The notes under the pieces are model-generated. The model saw only the letters and a program-made list of their open reading frames with translations. It did no database searches and was not told where the DNA came from. Position numbers and translations under genes: made by a program. From assembly GCA_964291405.2 (NCBI GenBank), contig OZ219926.1, positions 2,720,001 to 2,784,000 of the forward strand: 64,000 bases of DNA. The letters run 5' to 3'. The stretch is from Thermodesulfobacteriota bacterium (GTDB lineage Bacteria > Desulfobacterota > Binatia > Bin18). Shown piece after piece: positions 1 through 53,905 of the stretch. Each line of letters begins with the position of its first letter. Position 1 is the first letter of the stretch.

Positions 1-198
1 AAGATGGAGGGCCTGCATAAAAGCAAAAAGGATATCGCCTGGGGAAGTCAGATTCGCTCCTATGTCCTCCATCCCTACCGGATGGTCAAAGACCATCGCA
101 CCGGCGTGGAGGTCGGGAACACCGACGCGGTTCTGGATGGTGATATCGATCAGTTTATTGAAGCTTATCTGCTCCAACAATCGACGGTAGCCGAGTAA
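1..198 (+). CDS. prfB: Peptide chain release factor 2, C-terminal part (5' partial)
   Basis: [21 protein letters not shown]...[14 protein letters not shown] is the RF2 C-terminal signature. Confidence 0.95.
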
Positions 199-288
199 CG
201 GTTTCGGCCGTTCTCGACCCGTGAACCGGGTCACGAGAACAGCACAATCTCTTGGCAATCATCCGGGAAGCAGGTACACTCCTGCGAC

Positions 289-342
289 AAAGAGGAAACG
301 TGTCCACCAATCAGGCACAGAGGCTGGATACGTTTCCTCTTT
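289..342 (+). repeat. 54-bp palindromic element, copy 1 (prfB-PAC2 intergenic)
   Basis: AAAGAGGAAACGTGTCCA-N18-TGGATACGTTTCCTCTTT. Confidence 0.9.
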
Positions 343-388
343 CTGTCCTTGCCTGAGACCAAGGGGTAAGCGCCTCTGGGGGGAAACC

Positions 389-1306
389 ATGAACGCATTG
401 ACAATTGAACGAATTCCGGAACTGAACGACCCCGTCCTGATTGTCGCCTTTGCCGGCTGGAACGATGCCGGCAGTGCGGCGACGCATGCCACGCAATTTC
501 TTATCAAACGACTCCAGGCCCAGCGTTTCGCGACGATCGACCCTGAAGAATTTTATAATTTCAGTGAGGTCCGGCCCCACGTGCGCCTGCGAGATGGCCT
601 CTACCGCGAGATTCGCTGGCCGGCCAATGAATTCTTTGCGACTAGCGCAGAGCAGCTCAAGCGCAGCATGGTCCTGGGTCAGGGCATTGAACCGCATCTC
701 CGCTGGAAGGCGTATTCAGCGGCCTGTCTGGATGTTGCCAAGCAGTGTGGGGTGCGCCTCGTGATTACCCTGGGTGCGCTCTTGGCCGATGTGGCCTACT
801 CCAGGCCGGTACGCGTGGTCGGATTTAGCAGCGACCCCGATATTGCGACCCAACTCCAACTCACCCCGTCCCGCTACGAGGGGCCAACCGGCATCGTCGG
901 GGTGTTGAACGATGCCTGCCGACAGGCTGGATTGACGTCCATCAGTTTCTGGGCCAACGTGCCGCACTATATTTCCGCTTCTCCAAACCCAAAGGCCGCC
1001 CTGGCTCTCGTCAGCCGTCTTGAGTCCTTTCTCCACTTCGCCCTGGATACCACCGAGTTGGTGACGGGCGCGGCGGAGTTTGACGCACAGGTTGCAAAGG
1101 CGATTGCCGAGAATCCCAACTTGGCCGCCTATGTCAAACGCCTGGAAGAACAGGAGCAGGAAGAGGGGCTGGAAACGGAGACCGCTGCGCAGGACAAAGC
1201 CGGCAACGGACACGGCAACGGCAACGGGCATGCCAACGGCAAGGATATGGCTGAAGAACTCCAGCGTTTCTTGCAGCAGCGTAAGGATCGTAAAGATGAC
1301 GAGTGA
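389..1306 (+). CDS. PAC2 family (proteasome assembly chaperone-like) protein
   Basis: VLIVAFAGWNDAG, IDPEEFY, EPHLRW, YEGPTGIVGVL, WANVPHY motifs; start moved to ATG 389 because the upstream extension is the repeat. Confidence 0.85.
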   Translation: MNALTIERIPELNDPVLIVAFAGWNDAGSAATHATQFLIKRLQAQRFATIDPEEFYNFSEVRPHVRLRDGLYREIRWPANEFFATSAEQLKRSMVLGQGIEPHLRWKAYSAACLDVAKQCGVRLVITLGALLADVAYSRPVRVVGFSSDPDIATQLQLTPSRYEGPTGIVGVLNDACRQAGLTSISFWANVPHYISASPNPKAALALVSRLESFLHFALDTTELVTGAAEFDAQVAKAIAENPNLAAYVKRLEEQEQEEGLETETAAQDKAGNGHGNGNGHANGKDMAEELQRFLQQRKDRKDDE

Positions 1307-2810
1307 GGCCCGGCCCGACCCGGATAAGTCCGTGTATATGGTGAATCTGGGTTGCCCTAAAAATCTCGTGGATGGCGAGGTCATGCTCGGCCTGCTGGCG
1401 GATGCAGGCTATACGCTGAGCCTCGACCCGGAACAGGCCGGGGTCCTGATGGTCAATACGTGCAGCTTTATCGACGAGGCCAAGGAAGAGTCGATTGAGA
1501 CGATCTTGGACTTGGCGACCTATAAGACGACGAAGACAAAGAGGAAACGCGCCCTCCAATCAGACAAAAAAGCCGGACACGTTTCCTCTTTCGAGAAACA
1601 GCTCATTGTGACCGGCTGTTTAGCCCAGCGCTACGGTCAGGAGCTGCGCGAACTTCTCCCTGAAGTTGACGTTTTTGTGGGAACGGGAGAGTTTCTTCGG
1701 ATCACCGAGATATTGGAACAAAGGCGGCGCGCGCTTGAAAAGAGGGAACGTGTCCTCCAATCATCCAAAAAAGCTGGACACGTTCCCTCTTTTGGTCCTA
1801 CCATGTATCTGGGGGCCTCTCACGTCCTGCCGGATCATACCGTTCCGCGTATCCCGACTACCCATTTTTACTCCGCCTATCTCAAGGTCGCCGAAGGTTG
1901 CAACCACAAATGCGCCTTTTGTATTATTCCGAAAATTCGCGGCTTACAGGAAAGTCGGCCGATTGCTTCTCTCGTGGCCGAAGCTACCGGACTGGTCGCA
2001 CAAGGGGTGAGAGAAATTAATCTCATTGCGCAAGACCTGACCGCTTACGGGCGAGAGCGCCGTGATGGGACGACCCTGCTGGCCCTGCTCAAATCCCTCG
2101 TGCGCGTTAAGGGTCTGGACTGGATTCGGCTGCTGTACTGCTATCCGAATTATCTCGACGAAGCCCTGTTAGGTTTCATTGCCGCAGAAGAAAAAGTATG
2201 CCCGTATATTGATATGCCGCTCCAGCATATCAGCGACCGGATGTTGAGGCGGATGAAGCGGGAGAAAAGCGGGGACGGCATTCGCCGCGTGTTGGACCGG
2301 ATTCGGGCCGCTATTCCCAATGTGATTATACGCTCGTCTTTTATTGTTGGCTTTCCCGGTGAGCGAGAGGACGATTTTCAGCAGCTGTGCGATTTCGTAA
2401 CCGAGGCGGAGCTCGATCACGTAGGGGTGTTTCGCTATTCCCAGGAGGAAGGGACAGCTGCTGGTACAATGGCCGACCAGATCAGCGAAGAGATCAAAGA
2501 AGACCGCTGGCACAAATTGATGGCCTGCCAGGCCGAAGTCGTGCGTAAAAAAAATAGCGCGCTGGTGGGTGAGGAACGATCGATACTCGTCTGTGGTCAG
2601 GACGATCACGGCCGCTGGTGGGGGCGGACGCAGGGCCAGGCTCCGGATATCGATGGCATCGTCTTCCTGGAACAGTGTCCGGCTGACAGCGGCGACATGG
2701 TCCGTGCCCGGATTACCGGGGCGTCCGGTTATGACCTGCAAGCGCGCTGTCTTCCCGAGCAGCCGTTTCAAACATCCACAGCTCTTGACTTGGCAGCCGC
2801 TTCTCCCTAA
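1296..2810 (+). CDS. rimO: Ribosomal protein S12 methylthiotransferase RimO, carrying two 18-aa repeat-derived insertions
   Basis: LGCPKNLVD, VNTCSFI, VTGCLAQRY, radical SAM CNHKCAFC, C-terminal TRAM domain (APDIDG). Confidence 0.95.
   Translation: MTSEARPDPDKSVYMVNLGCPKNLVDGEVMLGLLADAGYTLSLDPEQAGVLMVNTCSFIDEAKEESIETILDLATYKTTKTKRKRALQSDKKAGHVSSFEKQLIVTGCLAQRYGQELRELLPEVDVFVGTGEFLRITEILEQRRRALEKRERVLQSSKKAGHVPSFGPTMYLGASHVLPDHTVPRIPTTHFYSAYLKVAEGCNHKCAFCIIPKIRGLQESRPIASLVAEATGLVAQGVREINLIAQDLTAYGRERRDGTTLLALLKSLVRVKGLDWIRLLYCYPNYLDEALLGFIAAEEKVCPYIDMPLQHISDRMLRRMKREKSGDGIRRVLDRIRAAIPNVIIRSSFIVGFPGEREDDFQQLCDFVTEAELDHVGVFRYSQEEGTAAGTMADQISEEIKEDRWHKLMACQAEVVRKKNSALVGEERSILVCGQDDHGRWWGRTQGQAPDIDGIVFLEQCPADSGDMVRARITGASGYDLQARCLPEQPFQTSTALDLAAASP
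1538..1591 (+). repeat. 54-bp palindromic element, copy 2, in-frame within rimO
   Basis: AAAGAGGAAACGCGCCCTCCAATCAGACAAAAAAGCCGGACACGTTTCCTCTTT; encodes KRKRALQSDKKAGHVSSF. Confidence 0.9.
1739..1792 (+). repeat. 54-bp palindromic element, copy 3, in-frame within rimO
   Basis: AAAGAGGGAACGTGTCCTCCAATCATCCAAAAAAGCTGGACACGTTCCCTCTTT; encodes KRERVLQSSKKAGHVPSF. Confidence 0.9.
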
Positions 2811-2813
2811 GGT
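2785..2813 (+). promoter_or_regulatory. Putative sigma70 promoter for dksA
   Basis: TTGACT-17bp-TAAGGT at the end of rimO. Confidence 0.5.
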
Positions 2814-2843
2814 GTCTCTCCTTTTTATCTCGACCGTGGTGAA

Positions 2844-2898
2844 AAAGAGTCAAGATGTCCTCCACGCATCCAAATAAAGCTGGACACGTTTACCCTTT
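2844..2898 (+). repeat. Palindromic element, copy 4 (degenerate, upstream of dksA)
   Basis: AAAGAGTCAAGATGTCCTCCA...AAAGCTGGACACGTTTACCCTTT. Confidence 0.85.
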
Positions 2899-36590: not shown

Positions 36591-36700
36591 GGTGACGGAA
36601 GGGTCAGGCCACCAGAGTTGGTGAGACGGTGTCGGCCCTCCCTTTTGCCACATGGGAAATGACGAACGGCGAAGAGTGTCCAGCCGACAAAGCCCTTTCC

Positions 36701-37438
36701 ATGTTTTATCGCGTTAAGCTCAACGTCTTTGAGGGACCGCTCGACTTATTGCTCCATCTCGTCAAGAAGAACGAGGTGGAGTTGCCCGATATCCCTGTTG
36801 CTGAAATTACCGATCAGTATTTAGCCTACCTCGACCTTCTCAAACAGCTCGATCTTGACATCGCAGGAGAATACCTGGTGATGGCGGCGAGCCTGCTCTA
36901 CCTCAAATCGCGTCTCCTGCTGCCTCTTGAGGAAACCCCCGAAGAAGAGGAGGGTGAAGACCCGCGCGCGGAGTTGGCTCGACAACTGCTCGAATACCAA
37001 CGCTTCAAAGAAGCAGCCGAGACGCTGATAGGTCGGGAGATGCTCAACCGCGACGTGTTTATTCGCCCACCCATGCCCGTCGAGCCGGATGGTAAAGACG
37101 ATGTCGTGTATGACTTGTCGCTGGGCGATCTGCTCGATGCTCTGCAGGATGTGATGACACGCGCAGACTCTCAAGAGGCGCATCAGATCATGCTTGAGCA
37201 TGTGTCTTTGCGGGATCGACTGCGTGCGGTGCTTGATACCTTACGGGAAAAAGGAGAGGTGTTCTTCGAGCAGCTTTTTCCCCAGAATTCAACCCGCCTG
37301 CAGGTCCTGGTGACCTTCCTGGCCGTTCTCGAACTGGCCCGCAATAGGATGATCCAGGTGCGCCAAGAGAATCCCTTTGGCCCGATCGTTGCCTCCCTGG
37401 CGGTAAGAGGAAACGTGTCCTCCAATGATGTCGTATAA
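36701..37438 (+). CDS. scpA: Segregation and condensation protein A
   Basis: FEGPLDLLL, LKSRLLLP, LLEYQRFK, VTFLAVLEL; start could be 36659. Confidence 0.93.
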   Translation: MFYRVKLNVFEGPLDLLLHLVKKNEVELPDIPVAEITDQYLAYLDLLKQLDLDIAGEYLVMAASLLYLKSRLLLPLEETPEEEEGEDPRAELARQLLEYQRFKEAAETLIGREMLNRDVFIRPPMPVEPDGKDDVVYDLSLGDLLDALQDVMTRADSQEAHQIMLEHVSLRDRLRAVLDTLREKGEVFFEQLFPQNSTRLQVLVTFLAVLELARNRMIQVRQENPFGPIVASLAVRGNVSSNDVV

Positions 37439-37498: not shown

Positions 37499-38194
37499 AT
37501 GAAAACAGATCACATCAAGGCGATCGTCGAAAGTCTGCTATTTGCATCCGGCGTGCCCCTGCCGCTTCGCCGTCTGGTTGAGGTCACTGGCGCAACCAAG
37601 ACAGAGGTGAAGGAAGCCCTTGCCGCCCTGCGCGCCGAATATACCGGCCCCTACCGAGGGGTGCGGCTCCGAGAAGTCGCGGGCGGCTATCAGTTTCGGA
37701 CGGTTGCCGACTATGCCGACTATGTGAAAGCCCTAGGTCGGGATAAACCGGTCAAGTTGAGCCGCGCGGCCCTCGAAACGCTCGCCATTATTGCCTATCG
37801 TCAACCCTTGACCAAGATTGAGATTGAAGCCATTCGTGGCGTCGATGTGGACGGCGTGTTAAACTCGCTCCTCACCCGCAAGCTCATTACCGTCCTGGGG
37901 CGTAAAGATGTACCCGGCCGGCCGTGGATATACGGGACGAGCCAGCAGTTTCTTGAAGTTTTCAACCTGGAGAGTATTAGAGACCTCCCCCCGTTGCCCG
38001 ACATTCATGAGCCAACGGCAAATGCGCACGCAGAAGACAGCCCAGACTCAACGGCTCCAGAAGATCCTGAGTCAGGCGGGGATTTCTTCGCGACGGGCAG
38101 CGGAGCGGTTGATCCAGGCCGGTCGAGTCCGGGTGAATGGACAAACGGTCACGCGTCTGGGAACAACGGCGGACCCGCGACAGGATCGCATTGA
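37499..38194 (+). CDS. scpB: Segregation and condensation protein B
   Basis: VESLLFA, VAGGYQFRT, LETLAIIAYRQP, IRGVD, PGRP..YGT. Confidence 0.93.
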   Translation: MKTDHIKAIVESLLFASGVPLPLRRLVEVTGATKTEVKEALAALRAEYTGPYRGVRLREVAGGYQFRTVADYADYVKALGRDKPVKLSRAALETLAIIAYRQPLTKIEIEAIRGVDVDGVLNSLLTRKLITVLGRKDVPGRPWIYGTSQQFLEVFNLESIRDLPPLPDIHEPTANAHAEDSPDSTAPEDPESGGDFFATGSGAVDPGRSSPGEWTNGHASGNNGGPATGSH

Positions 38195-48206: not shown

Positions 48207-48258
48207 CGGTTTGCTTCGTATCGGCCAGTAAGATGGCAGGAACGAAGCTAACGGACCA

Positions 48259-48286
48259 ATTCACTACCGCACGGGTAGCTAAGAAA
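48259..48286 (+). CRISPR. Solitary degenerate I-F repeat between cas2-3 and cas8f
   Basis: ATTCACTACCGCACGGGTAGCTAAGAAA, 23/28 identical to the array repeat with stem pairing preserved. Confidence 0.88.
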
Positions 48287-48324
48287 TATCTATCGATATT
48301 TATACTTTTAGAGGAGATTTCGTG

Positions 48325-52203: not shown

Positions 52204-52332
52204 CCCTTTTTTCCTGGTTATCCATAACCCTTTGATTTACTTGTATATTTTTTAGGGGTTCGTATTAAGGTAAAGTCGTCACGTTTTACCCGAACTCCTT
52301 GAGAATCAAAGGCTTACACATCTGTGTCTTCA
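52204..52332 (+). promoter_or_regulatory. AT-rich CRISPR leader with two IHF-consensus sites
   Basis: WATCAANNNNTTR matches at 52304-52316 (+) and 52225-52237 (-). Confidence 0.8.
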
Positions 52333-53861
52333 GTTCACTGCCGTACAGGCAGCTAAGAAATACACGCTTGATCTCTTTGCCGGTGATTCTGCGTTCACTG
52401 CCGTACAGGCAGCTAAGAAAAGCTAGAGCTAGACGTACAACTGTTGAACCCCGTTCACTGCCGTACAGGCAGCTAAGAAAACCCAGATATGCCGGGCTGT
52501 GGGGTGTGCTGGGTTCACTGCCGTACAGGCAGCTAAGAAAACCCTGGATTCCGTAGCGGCGGGAGACATGGTGTTCACTGCCGTACAGGCAGCTAAGAAA
52601 AGTTGCCTGGCATTTTTGCCGGGGCAGACTATGTTCACTGCCGTACAGGCAGCTAAGAAAACCGTGGAGTGCCGCGCCGTGACCCTGACCGTGTTCACTG
52701 CCGTACAGGCAGCTAAGAAAGCCATATGGTAACCCAGAAGCTGGCCGATGCCGTTCACTGCCGTACAGGCAGCTAAGAAAAGCTTGATCCTCACCGTTCC
52801 CCCTGTCTTAACGTTCACTGCCGTACAGGCAGCTAAGAAAAAATCGTCGGGGACGTAGCGCCTGGACCAAGTGTTCACTGCCGTACAGGCAGCTAAGAAA
52901 TGAAAGCTGCTCAACTCCTGAACCTCCCGACCGTTCACTGCCGTACAGGCAGCTAAGAAATATCGTTGATTGGTGATTCAATGGTCGATTTTGTTCACTG
53001 CCGTACAGGCAGCTAAGAAAAAGCGGAATTCCCAGATGGCCGAGGCGATACGGGTTCACTGCCGTACAGGCAGCTAAGAAAGCTCAGCCTAGAGGAGGAA
53101 GAGCCGATGAAAGGTTCACTGCCGTACAGGCAGCTAAGAAAACCAGCGGCTGACGAAACCCGAACTGCTGGATGTTCACTGCCGTACAGGCAGCTAAGAA
53201 ATTCGCGAAGTCATGTCGAACGACCTGGAGGGCGTTCACTGCCGTACAGGCAGCTAAGAAATATTGGGGGTCGCCATACTTCTATTTATGTTCGTTCACT
53301 GCCGTACAGGCAGCTAAGAAAACCGGGCTTGTCGTGCAGAACGAGGCCGGGACGTTCACTGCCGTACAGGCAGCTAAGAAATCCTCTGCTGTTGGGCATC
53401 CACTATGGATATTGTTCACTGCCGTACAGGCAGCTAAGAAAGTCTGCCTCTGATTACCCGCATTCGGCACTCAGTTCACTGCCGTACAGGCAGCTAAGAA
53501 AAACAAAAGCGAGCAAGACGACACGATGCACACGTTCACTGCCGTACAGGCAGCTAAGAAATATCGACTGGCGCGGCGGGTCAACCAGCTCGTGTTCACT
53601 GCCGTACAGGCAGCTAAGAAAAAGAGCATCAAGTCGGTCCGCTATCCAGTCGCGTTCACTGCCGTACAGGCAGCTAAGAAATTGATGTCGCCGAAGACCG
53701 TAGAGTACTGTCCGTTCACTGCCGTACAGGCAGCTAAGAAAAACGCGACTACGCCCGCAGCGAGCACGGCAAGGTTCACTGCCGTACAGGCAGCTAAGAA
53801 AAGCGAAAGCAGGTGGTTGAGCGCTGTATTGAAGTTCACTGCCGTACAGGCAGCTAAGAAA
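52333..53861 (+). CRISPR. Type I-F CRISPR array: 26 identical 28-bp repeats, 25 spacers (24 x 32 bp, 1 x 33 bp)
   Basis: GTTCACTGCCGTACAGGCAGCTAAGAAA at 60-bp period. Confidence 0.99.
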
Positions 53862-53905
53862 CTGGAAAATCAAGGACTTATCCAAGAAACCCTGGTGCCC
53901 GGTTT

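Follow-up and report, generated by a model that had tools for sequence, protein, structure and literature searches.

In a stretch of 64,000 nucleotides from a Binatia genome (contig OZ219926.1, positions 2,720,001 to 2,784,000 of the forward strand; hereafter the window), the gene rimO carries two in-frame copies of a 54-bp palindromic element. We found that these copies are very probably selfish hairpin DNA, tolerated as loops in an intact RimO and persisting there as near-neutral passengers. In the scenario that we favor, the element would be a non-autonomous, genus-restricted hairpin repeat with about 150 copies in the genome, most of them between genes, and copies inside genes would survive only where the frame is kept (18 codons), the phase that is read holds no stop, and the site is a permissive loop or linker. 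rimO would have been hit twice, each insertion occurring once in the ancestor of a sub-clade of the genus. The inserts would be translated as 18 extra residues each, the first set in an N-terminal-domain loop and the second in the linker between domains of an enzyme that still works, and would since have drifted, shrunk in frame and, in several lineages, been cleanly lost. The closest public records of this genome are metagenome-assembled genomes of Candidatus Binatia.

Repeat finding in the window placed four 58-nt stretches in one family, and two of these lie in rimO, 201 bp apart (Table 1). The first-pass annotation, made from the sequence alone, had described two 54-bp copies there in the same element frame, and nucleotide alignment to empty orthologous sites set their limits at exactly 54 bp, or 18 codons, each. 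Both inserts are read in the same element phase and enter after the second base of a host codon; at the junction of insert 1 the host Thr codon is kept synonymous, and at that of insert 2 a host Asp codon becomes Glu. Insert 2 folds as RNA into an 18-bp hairpin (-31.8 kcal/mol, z -7.25) that none of 200 shuffled sequences equalled, whereas insert 1 folds more weakly (-18.0 kcal/mol, z -2.9; 4/200 shuffles as good). Because further copies were recovered genome-wide with nhmmer and the hairpin folds beat their shuffles, the two stretches in rimO are not a chance resemblance. In the rimO phase, each insert encodes 18 additional residues that are mostly basic and hydrophilic, rich in Lys and Arg.

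Table 1. The host gene rimO and the copies of the hairpin element in the window (positions in the window).
Feature	Start	End	Strand	Remarks
rimO, host of both inserts	1296	2810	+	504 codons plus stop; Pfam, TIGR01125, Foldseek
Insert 1, 54-bp hairpin element	1538	1591	+	RimO residues 82-99, within UPF0004 domain
Insert 2, 54-bp hairpin element	1739	1792	+	RimO residues 149-166, linker between UPF0004 and radical SAM domains
Element copy, intergenic, 54 bp	289	342	+	5' of PAC2-family gene; nhmmer E 7e-15; fold -32.4 kcal/mol, z -5.27
Element copy, intergenic, 55 bp, decayed stem	2844	2898	+	between rimO and dksA/traR-type gene; nhmmer E 1.4e-10; fold z -1.0, no better than shuffles
Element copy, intergenic, 56 bp	9385	9440	-	nhmmer E 3e-14; inverted-repeat partner
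Element copy, intergenic, 54 bp	33302	33355	+	divergent open reading frames on either side; nhmmer E 5.5e-17; member of a repeat family
Element copy, 56 bp	37404	37459	+	overlaps 3' end of open reading frame 36629-37438; second of two genic phases

The host gene has the domain order of RimO, with UPF0004 (residues 13-129), Radical_SAM (198-368) and TRAM_2 (424-485) matches in Pfam, three N-terminal cysteines and the three-cysteine radical SAM motif. Its product scored 464.3 bits against the RimO equivalog TIGR01125 of NCBIfam (cut-off 356.95), whereas its scores against the families MtaB (258.8 bits) and MiaB (253.5 bits) each fell under the family's own cut-off. The cysteine motifs, called intact in the first-pass annotation, are indeed so: C20, C56 and C108 together with C202, C206 and C209 are invariant in an alignment of 77 sequences, from which loci L059 and L073 (genomes and loci are denoted by G and L numbers) were excluded for a stop inside their ranges. 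A homology search found no second rimO in the genome, the only other match being a 34%-identical paralogue. Among insert-bearing genomes, the ratio of nonsynonymous to synonymous divergence (dN/dS) of the host gene without its inserts was 0.12-0.13 for pooled pairwise comparisons, whose pairs are not independent; rimO in these lineages is under purifying selection. The equivalog score, this selection and the fold match described below all argue for an intact gene, on which the first-pass reading had depended, and RimO probably retains its activity (methylthiolation of an Asp of S12) with both inserts present. Separately, one TAA divides the rimO of G014 (L029), whose genome lacks the element, into two matches; a broken gene or an assembly error may be the cause.

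The inserts had been placed in a loop and in a linker, and structural modeling bore this out. The AlphaFold2 model of RimO, built on the 77-sequence alignment (mean predicted local distance difference test score, pLDDT, 85.6; predicted template modeling score 0.85), left residues 82-97 of insert 1 unstructured at pLDDT <50, between a helix (60-78) and a strand (102-107); the insert lies 9 residues before the third N-terminal cluster cysteine. At insert 2, helix 133-156 extends into the insert and is followed by a loop, at moderate confidence (means of 65-66 for blocks of 10 residues). The best Foldseek match of the model was the RimO of T. maritima (4jc0; TM 0.91 on the target), and the sequence alignment to 4jc0 shows a gap over most of insert 1, while the linker with insert 2 lies outside the alignment. 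Both inserts are thus predicted to be exposed at the surface.

Orthologues of rimO were compared in 25 genomes of the genus (22 in the main alignment and three more), and the two clean 18-residue indels that the first-pass annotation had anticipated were seen in both the protein and the codon alignments. Five genomes carry both inserts, nine insert 2 only, two insert 1 only and nine neither; rows from other families lack both (6/6). Some filled sites have eroded: insert 1 is reduced to 16 codons in L039, and insert 2 to 14 codons in L043 and 11 in G010. At site 1, a scar of six bases consisting of the element's first three and last three is found in G001, G010 and G022. Erosion of the inserts in rimO is always frame-preserving. 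The dN/dS of the inserts was 0.43 for site 1 (6 genomes) and 0.75 for site 2 (12 genomes), 3.5 to 6 times that of the host; both inserts are under relaxed constraint relative to the gene in which they lie.

A maximum-likelihood tree of rimO, computed with the insert columns removed, placed all insert-bearing genes within one clade of 18 rows (support 100/100). Within this clade the states are scattered, requiring at least four changes for insert 1 and at least five for insert 2. Since the copies at each site share sub-family features and an identical junction, and the element has no target motif, we favor one gain per site followed by loss; the alignments and tree are best read as one gain at each site and then repeated exact loss, or replacement by empty alleles through recombination. 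On a single-gene tree such as this, exact loss, recombination and repeated hits are indistinguishable.

RNA evidence was sought in contigs of four metatranscriptome runs (X15-X18), all of which leave positions 1653-1754 uncovered; X17 and X18 cover neither insert. One X15 contig spans insert 1, minus two codons, and in X15 and X16 contigs the flanks of site 2 are joined directly. Joined flanks would favor a reading in which the inserts never form part of the protein, either because processing of the RNA or the protein takes them out or because this rimO is a decaying pseudogene or an assembly artefact, and a stable hairpin in an open reading frame could in principle be a processing site. The features of these contigs, however, match the DNA of L039 from a related species: an empty site 2, a 16-codon insert 1 and the same two missing codons. 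Because the DNA of L039 is also empty at site 2, the empty site in the RNA reflects genotype and gives no sign of processing, and the same contig from an RNA library keeps insert 1. This offers weak evidence that insert 1 is retained in the transcript of a relative, contamination of the library with DNA being possible. Recurrence of the inserts in independently assembled genomes, the intact reading frame and motifs, the low host dN/dS, the lack of a second rimO, and erosion that is always in frame, which matters only if the inserts are translated, all speak against removal or a defunct gene, and we give that explanation hardly any credence.

To define the element, we built an nhmmer profile from the window copies and searched the whole 4.95-Mb assembly. 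The census gave 163 non-overlapping copies at E<=0.01 and 150 at E<1e-5, all on the large contig (C3), seven of them in the window. The element is a single hairpin with a 17-bp stem and a loop of roughly 20 nt, and it has abrupt limits: at its outermost bases the information content goes from 1.4-1.9 bits per position to about 0. Its modal length is 54 bp (83/144 full-length copies; range 51-57), which accounts for 10/13 full-length intragenic copies vs 73/131 others. The first-pass observation that coding copies are exactly 18 codons long and intergenic ones variable was true but uninformative, and we rejected this length as a sign of selection in coding copies, given that 54 bp is also modal outside genes. 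Direct repeats of 2-5 nt flank the copies at chance frequency (7, 3, 1 and 0 of 144), no target-site duplication was seen in two empty-versus-filled comparisons at rimO, the only sites with nucleotide-level junctions, and no conserved target site emerged over the 144 copies beyond a faint preference 4-6 bases outside the ends. No Rfam family matched any copy, the only matches in the window being one tRNA and 26 CRISPR repeats, and blastn of plasmid and phage collections (E<=0.001) found no match to the element.

Several observations concern the arrangement of copies. Four lie within 2.6 kb of the window (289-2898: ahead of the PAC2-family gene, two in rimO, and after rimO) and have one loop sub-type in common; when genomes are compared, both copies in rimO tend to match in loop variant and, in G006, in stem variant as well. 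These shared variants suggest local duplication and gene conversion between copies. Half of the 150 copies (75) occupy one fifth of the chromosome (C3 2.0-3.0 Mb), with 36 in 2.25-2.5 Mb; the window (2.72-2.78 Mb of C3) falls within this copy-rich region, and the cumulative GC-skew minimum lies near 1.9 Mb. Local hopping or a regional bias might be involved. Two further places hold paired copies. In L118 (G000:C3:2091886-2092040), a local tandem duplication takes in the element and gives two identical copies 101 bp apart; they share an open frame with a murC-like ligase gene and lie upstream of its first domain match. In L135 (G000:C3:2837079-2838158), an outer-membrane efflux (OEP) gene, two copies fall beyond the Pfam match, within the final 44 codons. 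In the window, a 269-codon open reading frame (ORF; 36629-37438), upstream of an ORF at 37499, has its last 11 codons and stop supplied by an element copy; we take it for scpA from its sequence and position only.

Over the 144 copies, the outer 17 positions of the element are paired in 2314/2448 cells, and 91 cells are changed on both sides, where 500 shuffles averaged 24 and never exceeded 36. Much of this count is due to two sub-families that differ at stem position 7, and it is thus inflated by shared ancestry. Such covariation is what one would expect if the hairpin were a functional nucleic-acid signal under selection, whether as a structure in mRNA that sets the pace of its translation or decay or, as has been proposed for repetitive extragenic palindromic (REP) sequences, as a site on DNA to which a nucleoid or topology protein binds, with copies in genes retained for that role and not merely tolerated. 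A matched change on both arms in two orthologous rimO copies points the same way, as do the low synonymous divergence of insert 2 relative to its host gene, the prevalence of the gene's own orientation among domain-verified intragenic copies, and an excess of intergenic copies in divergent over convergent spacers (28 vs 10; 655 spacers each). However, the covariation may also reflect the needs of transposition combined with the common ancestry of sub-families, and orthologous copies mostly decay: the stem of insert 1 is weak, the copies in G013 are far diverged, and deletions take arm sequence. In addition, the copy after rimO folds no better than shuffles, the inserts have been lost repeatedly, and the family is absent from most relatives of the genus. 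We therefore regard a selected signal, and with it a protein-binding site kept inside genes, as unlikely.

Copies in other genes were sought in two ways. On a crude gene map (4201 ORFs, whose start codons may be misplaced), which marks 85% of the genome as coding, predicted genes took in only 22/150 copies, and 8 of these 22 sit within 22 codons of a predicted gene end. An earlier coding-potential classifier was conservative (10/150 inside genes) and was replaced by this map and by Pfam checks. Since genic copies are so few, most intragenic insertions are either avoided or purged. In the second approach, 55/163 copies had an open frame extending at least 40 codons in either direction, and 30 of these stop-to-stop ORFs were scanned against Pfam, 22 giving a match and 8 none. 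In 10 of the 30, the copy lies inside or between matched segments, so that the element, which the first-pass annotation had proposed to look for in other coding sequences, stands in frame in at least ten genes besides rimO. These verified hosts are alanyl-tRNA synthetase (alaS), MnmG, MnmE, Mfd, a 1938-residue UvrA-like protein, Lnt, a CobW-family protein, a Cu-oxidase_4 (YfiH-type) protein, a HEAT-repeat protein and an FAD monooxygenase. The status of an APH-family kinase, whose Pfam match ends within the copy, is borderline. The other 11 matched ORFs were left uncounted and their copies may be intergenic: these lie downstream of all Pfam matches in two and upstream in nine (uvrC, a murC-like ligase, an acyl-CoA dehydrogenase, an alcohol dehydrogenase (ADH), a His phosphatase, a type II secretion system K (T2SS-K) protein, a histidine kinase, an AddB-like nuclease and an Abhydrolase_2-family esterase).

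Across the 12 verified copies, the two of rimO included, 10 are oriented with the gene; the rimO phase is used in 7 and the next phase in 4, and 1 switches phase within a 53-nt copy. The allelic pattern of rimO is repeated elsewhere. The alaS insert is an 18-residue indel present in 6/26 usable rows of the genus (the row of G012, a wrong-frame ORF, was excluded), and the mnmG insert is likewise an 18-residue indel in 6/26 rows, with a 4-residue remnant in a seventh; in both genes, one other genome has an 18-residue insert at a second site, independent of the first. Combinations of filled sites vary from gene to gene, and G002, for example, has the alaS insert and neither rimO insert. Junctions were resolved at the nucleotide level for the two rimO sites only.

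This roster of hosts bears on whether the basic peptides have been co-opted as a nucleic-acid-binding patch in RimO, AlaRS, MnmG, MnmE, Mfd and UvrA. Such a role would fit the abundance of Lys and Arg in the rimO-phase peptide, the many hosts that work on RNA or DNA, and an insert dN/dS below 1. Yet that ratio is several-fold above the host's, sites are lost or eroded in many lineages, and insert 1 has no ordered structure in the AlphaFold2 model. Moreover, mnmG, mnmE and two other genes read the next phase, which encodes an unrelated peptide, and the hosts also include Lnt, the CobW-family and HEAT-repeat proteins and the FAD monooxygenase. Co-option is thus very unlikely. Of the first-pass proposal that selfish DNA here creates new basic peptide segments, the insertion of selfish DNA was supported, while no evidence was found for a function of the peptides.

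Distribution was screened with a two-hexamer pattern that catches 85 copies in this genome, using the reversed pattern as a control. Within the genus, 18/28 genomes had 18-110 pattern matches, compared to 1-8 for the control, and 10 were at control level. Of 61 Binatia genomes sampled, none but this one and a single congener rose above control, and none of 57 from other genera was expanded (0/57). The repeat family is restricted to one Binatia genus.

We considered what might move the element. A Y1 transposase, of the type associated with REPs (RAYT), was rejected as mobiliser: the genome's one Y1 gene is broken into two ORFs, with no copy nearer than 15 kb, and Y1_Tnp matches do not correlate with copy number (8/18 high-copy and 5/10 low-copy genomes). 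The neighbor of the split gene in L141 (G000:C3:980603-983833) is an ORF (126-1085, minus strand) in which 11-residue repeats, nearly identical to one another, follow in a long series. A small GIY-YIG nuclease was also rejected, the only such ORF being 28 kb from the nearest copy, and a search of this genome for a longer parent that shares the element's ends came up empty (of 309 arm matches, 16 were solo arms; no gene enclosed by a solo pair). Single-strand elements of the IS200/IS605 "peel and paste" type and their miniature derivatives depend on hairpins, make no target-site duplication, excise seamlessly, use a Y1 HUH transposase and insert beside a fixed short target. The element described here shares the hairpin and the lack of duplication, and seamless excision would fit the exact losses at both rimO sites; it differs in having no conserved target and in the state and location of the only Y1 gene. 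We know of no mobilising enzyme for the Rickettsia palindromic elements (RPEs) either. Because the rimO tree calls for several seamless losses per site that restore the codon, because six-base scars occur, and because neither Y1/RAYT, nor small GIY-YIG, nor a parent element was implicated, it is conceivable, though doubtful, that removal of the element is just as precise as its insertion and proceeds by an undescribed hairpin-specific route of insertion and excision, either a new trans-acting enzyme or hairpin processing by the host. If so, loop insertions in essential enzymes would be reversible, and stems may perhaps be kept paired in place by templated repair.

A number of points weigh against the view of the inserts as tolerated, near-neutral passengers of single origin. 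Their translation was inferred, and support from RNA consists of one assembled contig, from a related species, which may be contaminating DNA. Their exposure was judged from AlphaFold2 confidence and the gap against 4jc0, not from coordinates. Approximately unbiased tests reject trees that group the bearers of either insert (p 4e-54 and 7e-74); a single gain without loss is thereby rejected, and therefore at least three to four exact losses per site, allele exchange, or repeated hits on one nucleotide must be invoked. The synonymous divergence of insert 2 is 0.157, compared to 0.265 in the host; together with the stem covariation and the 10/12 orientation bias, this hints at a constraint on the nucleic acid that a pure passenger model leaves unexplained. 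Finally, no mobilising enzyme was found among Y1, small GIY-YIG or a longer parent element.

Comparison with described systems shows that the element is a new family built on a known principle. RPEs (Ogata et al. 2000; PMC10969869, PMC3733652, PMC3184786) are likewise repeated palindromic elements, mostly intergenic, with many in-frame copies in unrelated, intact housekeeping genes; they encode a conserved peptide, and their insertions look compatible with the host fold. A review suggests that a similar process may occur elsewhere (PMC10969869). The present element differs in host (Binatia, as opposed to Alphaproteobacteria), in length (54 bp vs about 105-150 bp; PMC3184786, PMC10969869) and in genic share (22/150, on the crude gene map, vs nearly half for three RPE families), and it offers a full series of filled, eroded and empty alleles among congeners. 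Length and genus-confined distribution place it outside the RPE families, an assignment made from these two features and not from a comparison of the sequences themselves.

REPs provide a second parallel. GTAG/CGTC REPs have been described within genes in several species, with the highest numbers in Opitutus terrae and R. conorii; uvrA, uvrB and other genes for replication and repair are frequent hosts, and the inserts were judged tolerated rather than functional (Di Nocera et al. 2013; PMC3733652). With these in print, rimO is not the first such case outside Rickettsia. Like REPs, the copies are short hairpins, mostly intergenic, and their hosts include the uvrA-like gene and mfd and, less surely, the addB-like gene and uvrC. 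However, REPs are 20-40 bp long with stems of 5-13 bp and a GTAG/CGTC tag at one end, while this element measures 54 bp, has a 17-bp stem and carries no tag; GTAG REPs go with RAYT transposases, whereas here Y1 matches do not track copy number. Nor does it form a REPIN-RAYT system, as the Y1 gene of this genome is not flanked by repeats. Small non-autonomous repeats (ERIC, BOX, RUP, Correia and others) are sometimes fused to ORFs (Delihas 2007 and 2011; PMC3184786), and the in-frame fusion or extension of ORF ends by transposable elements of the miniature inverted-repeat type (MITEs) resembles the copy in which ORF 36629-37438 ends. MITEs are, however, defined by terminal inverted repeats and target-site duplications over 70-300 bp; the present element lacks the duplication, consists of a single hairpin from end to end, and had no longer counterpart with matching ends among the sequences found in this genome. 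Among the papers listed by literature searches on Binatia/Binatota and on in-frame intragenic hairpin repeats, none describes the element.

The window also holds a CRISPR array (52331-53864) of 26 repeats of 28 nt (Rfam CRISPR-DR4) at 60-nt spacing, and a diverged lone CRISPR repeat (48257-48288) lies 4 kb upstream of it.

Taken together, these results add a well-resolved case, in a different phylum of uncultured bacteria, to the short list of selfish hairpin repeats in essential genes. Their interest stems from the series of alleles that congeners offer and from the unexplained exact losses, not from the principle, and the picture drawn from RPEs and intragenic REPs is unchanged. The filled, eroded, scarred and empty alleles across rimO, alaS and mnmG constitute a natural experiment, which asks how far a radical SAM enzyme and a tRNA synthetase tolerate insertion, how fast inserts decay, and whether they can be cleanly excised. 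For annotation, recognition of the element matters in that its 18-residue segments would otherwise be misread as lineage-specific protein features.

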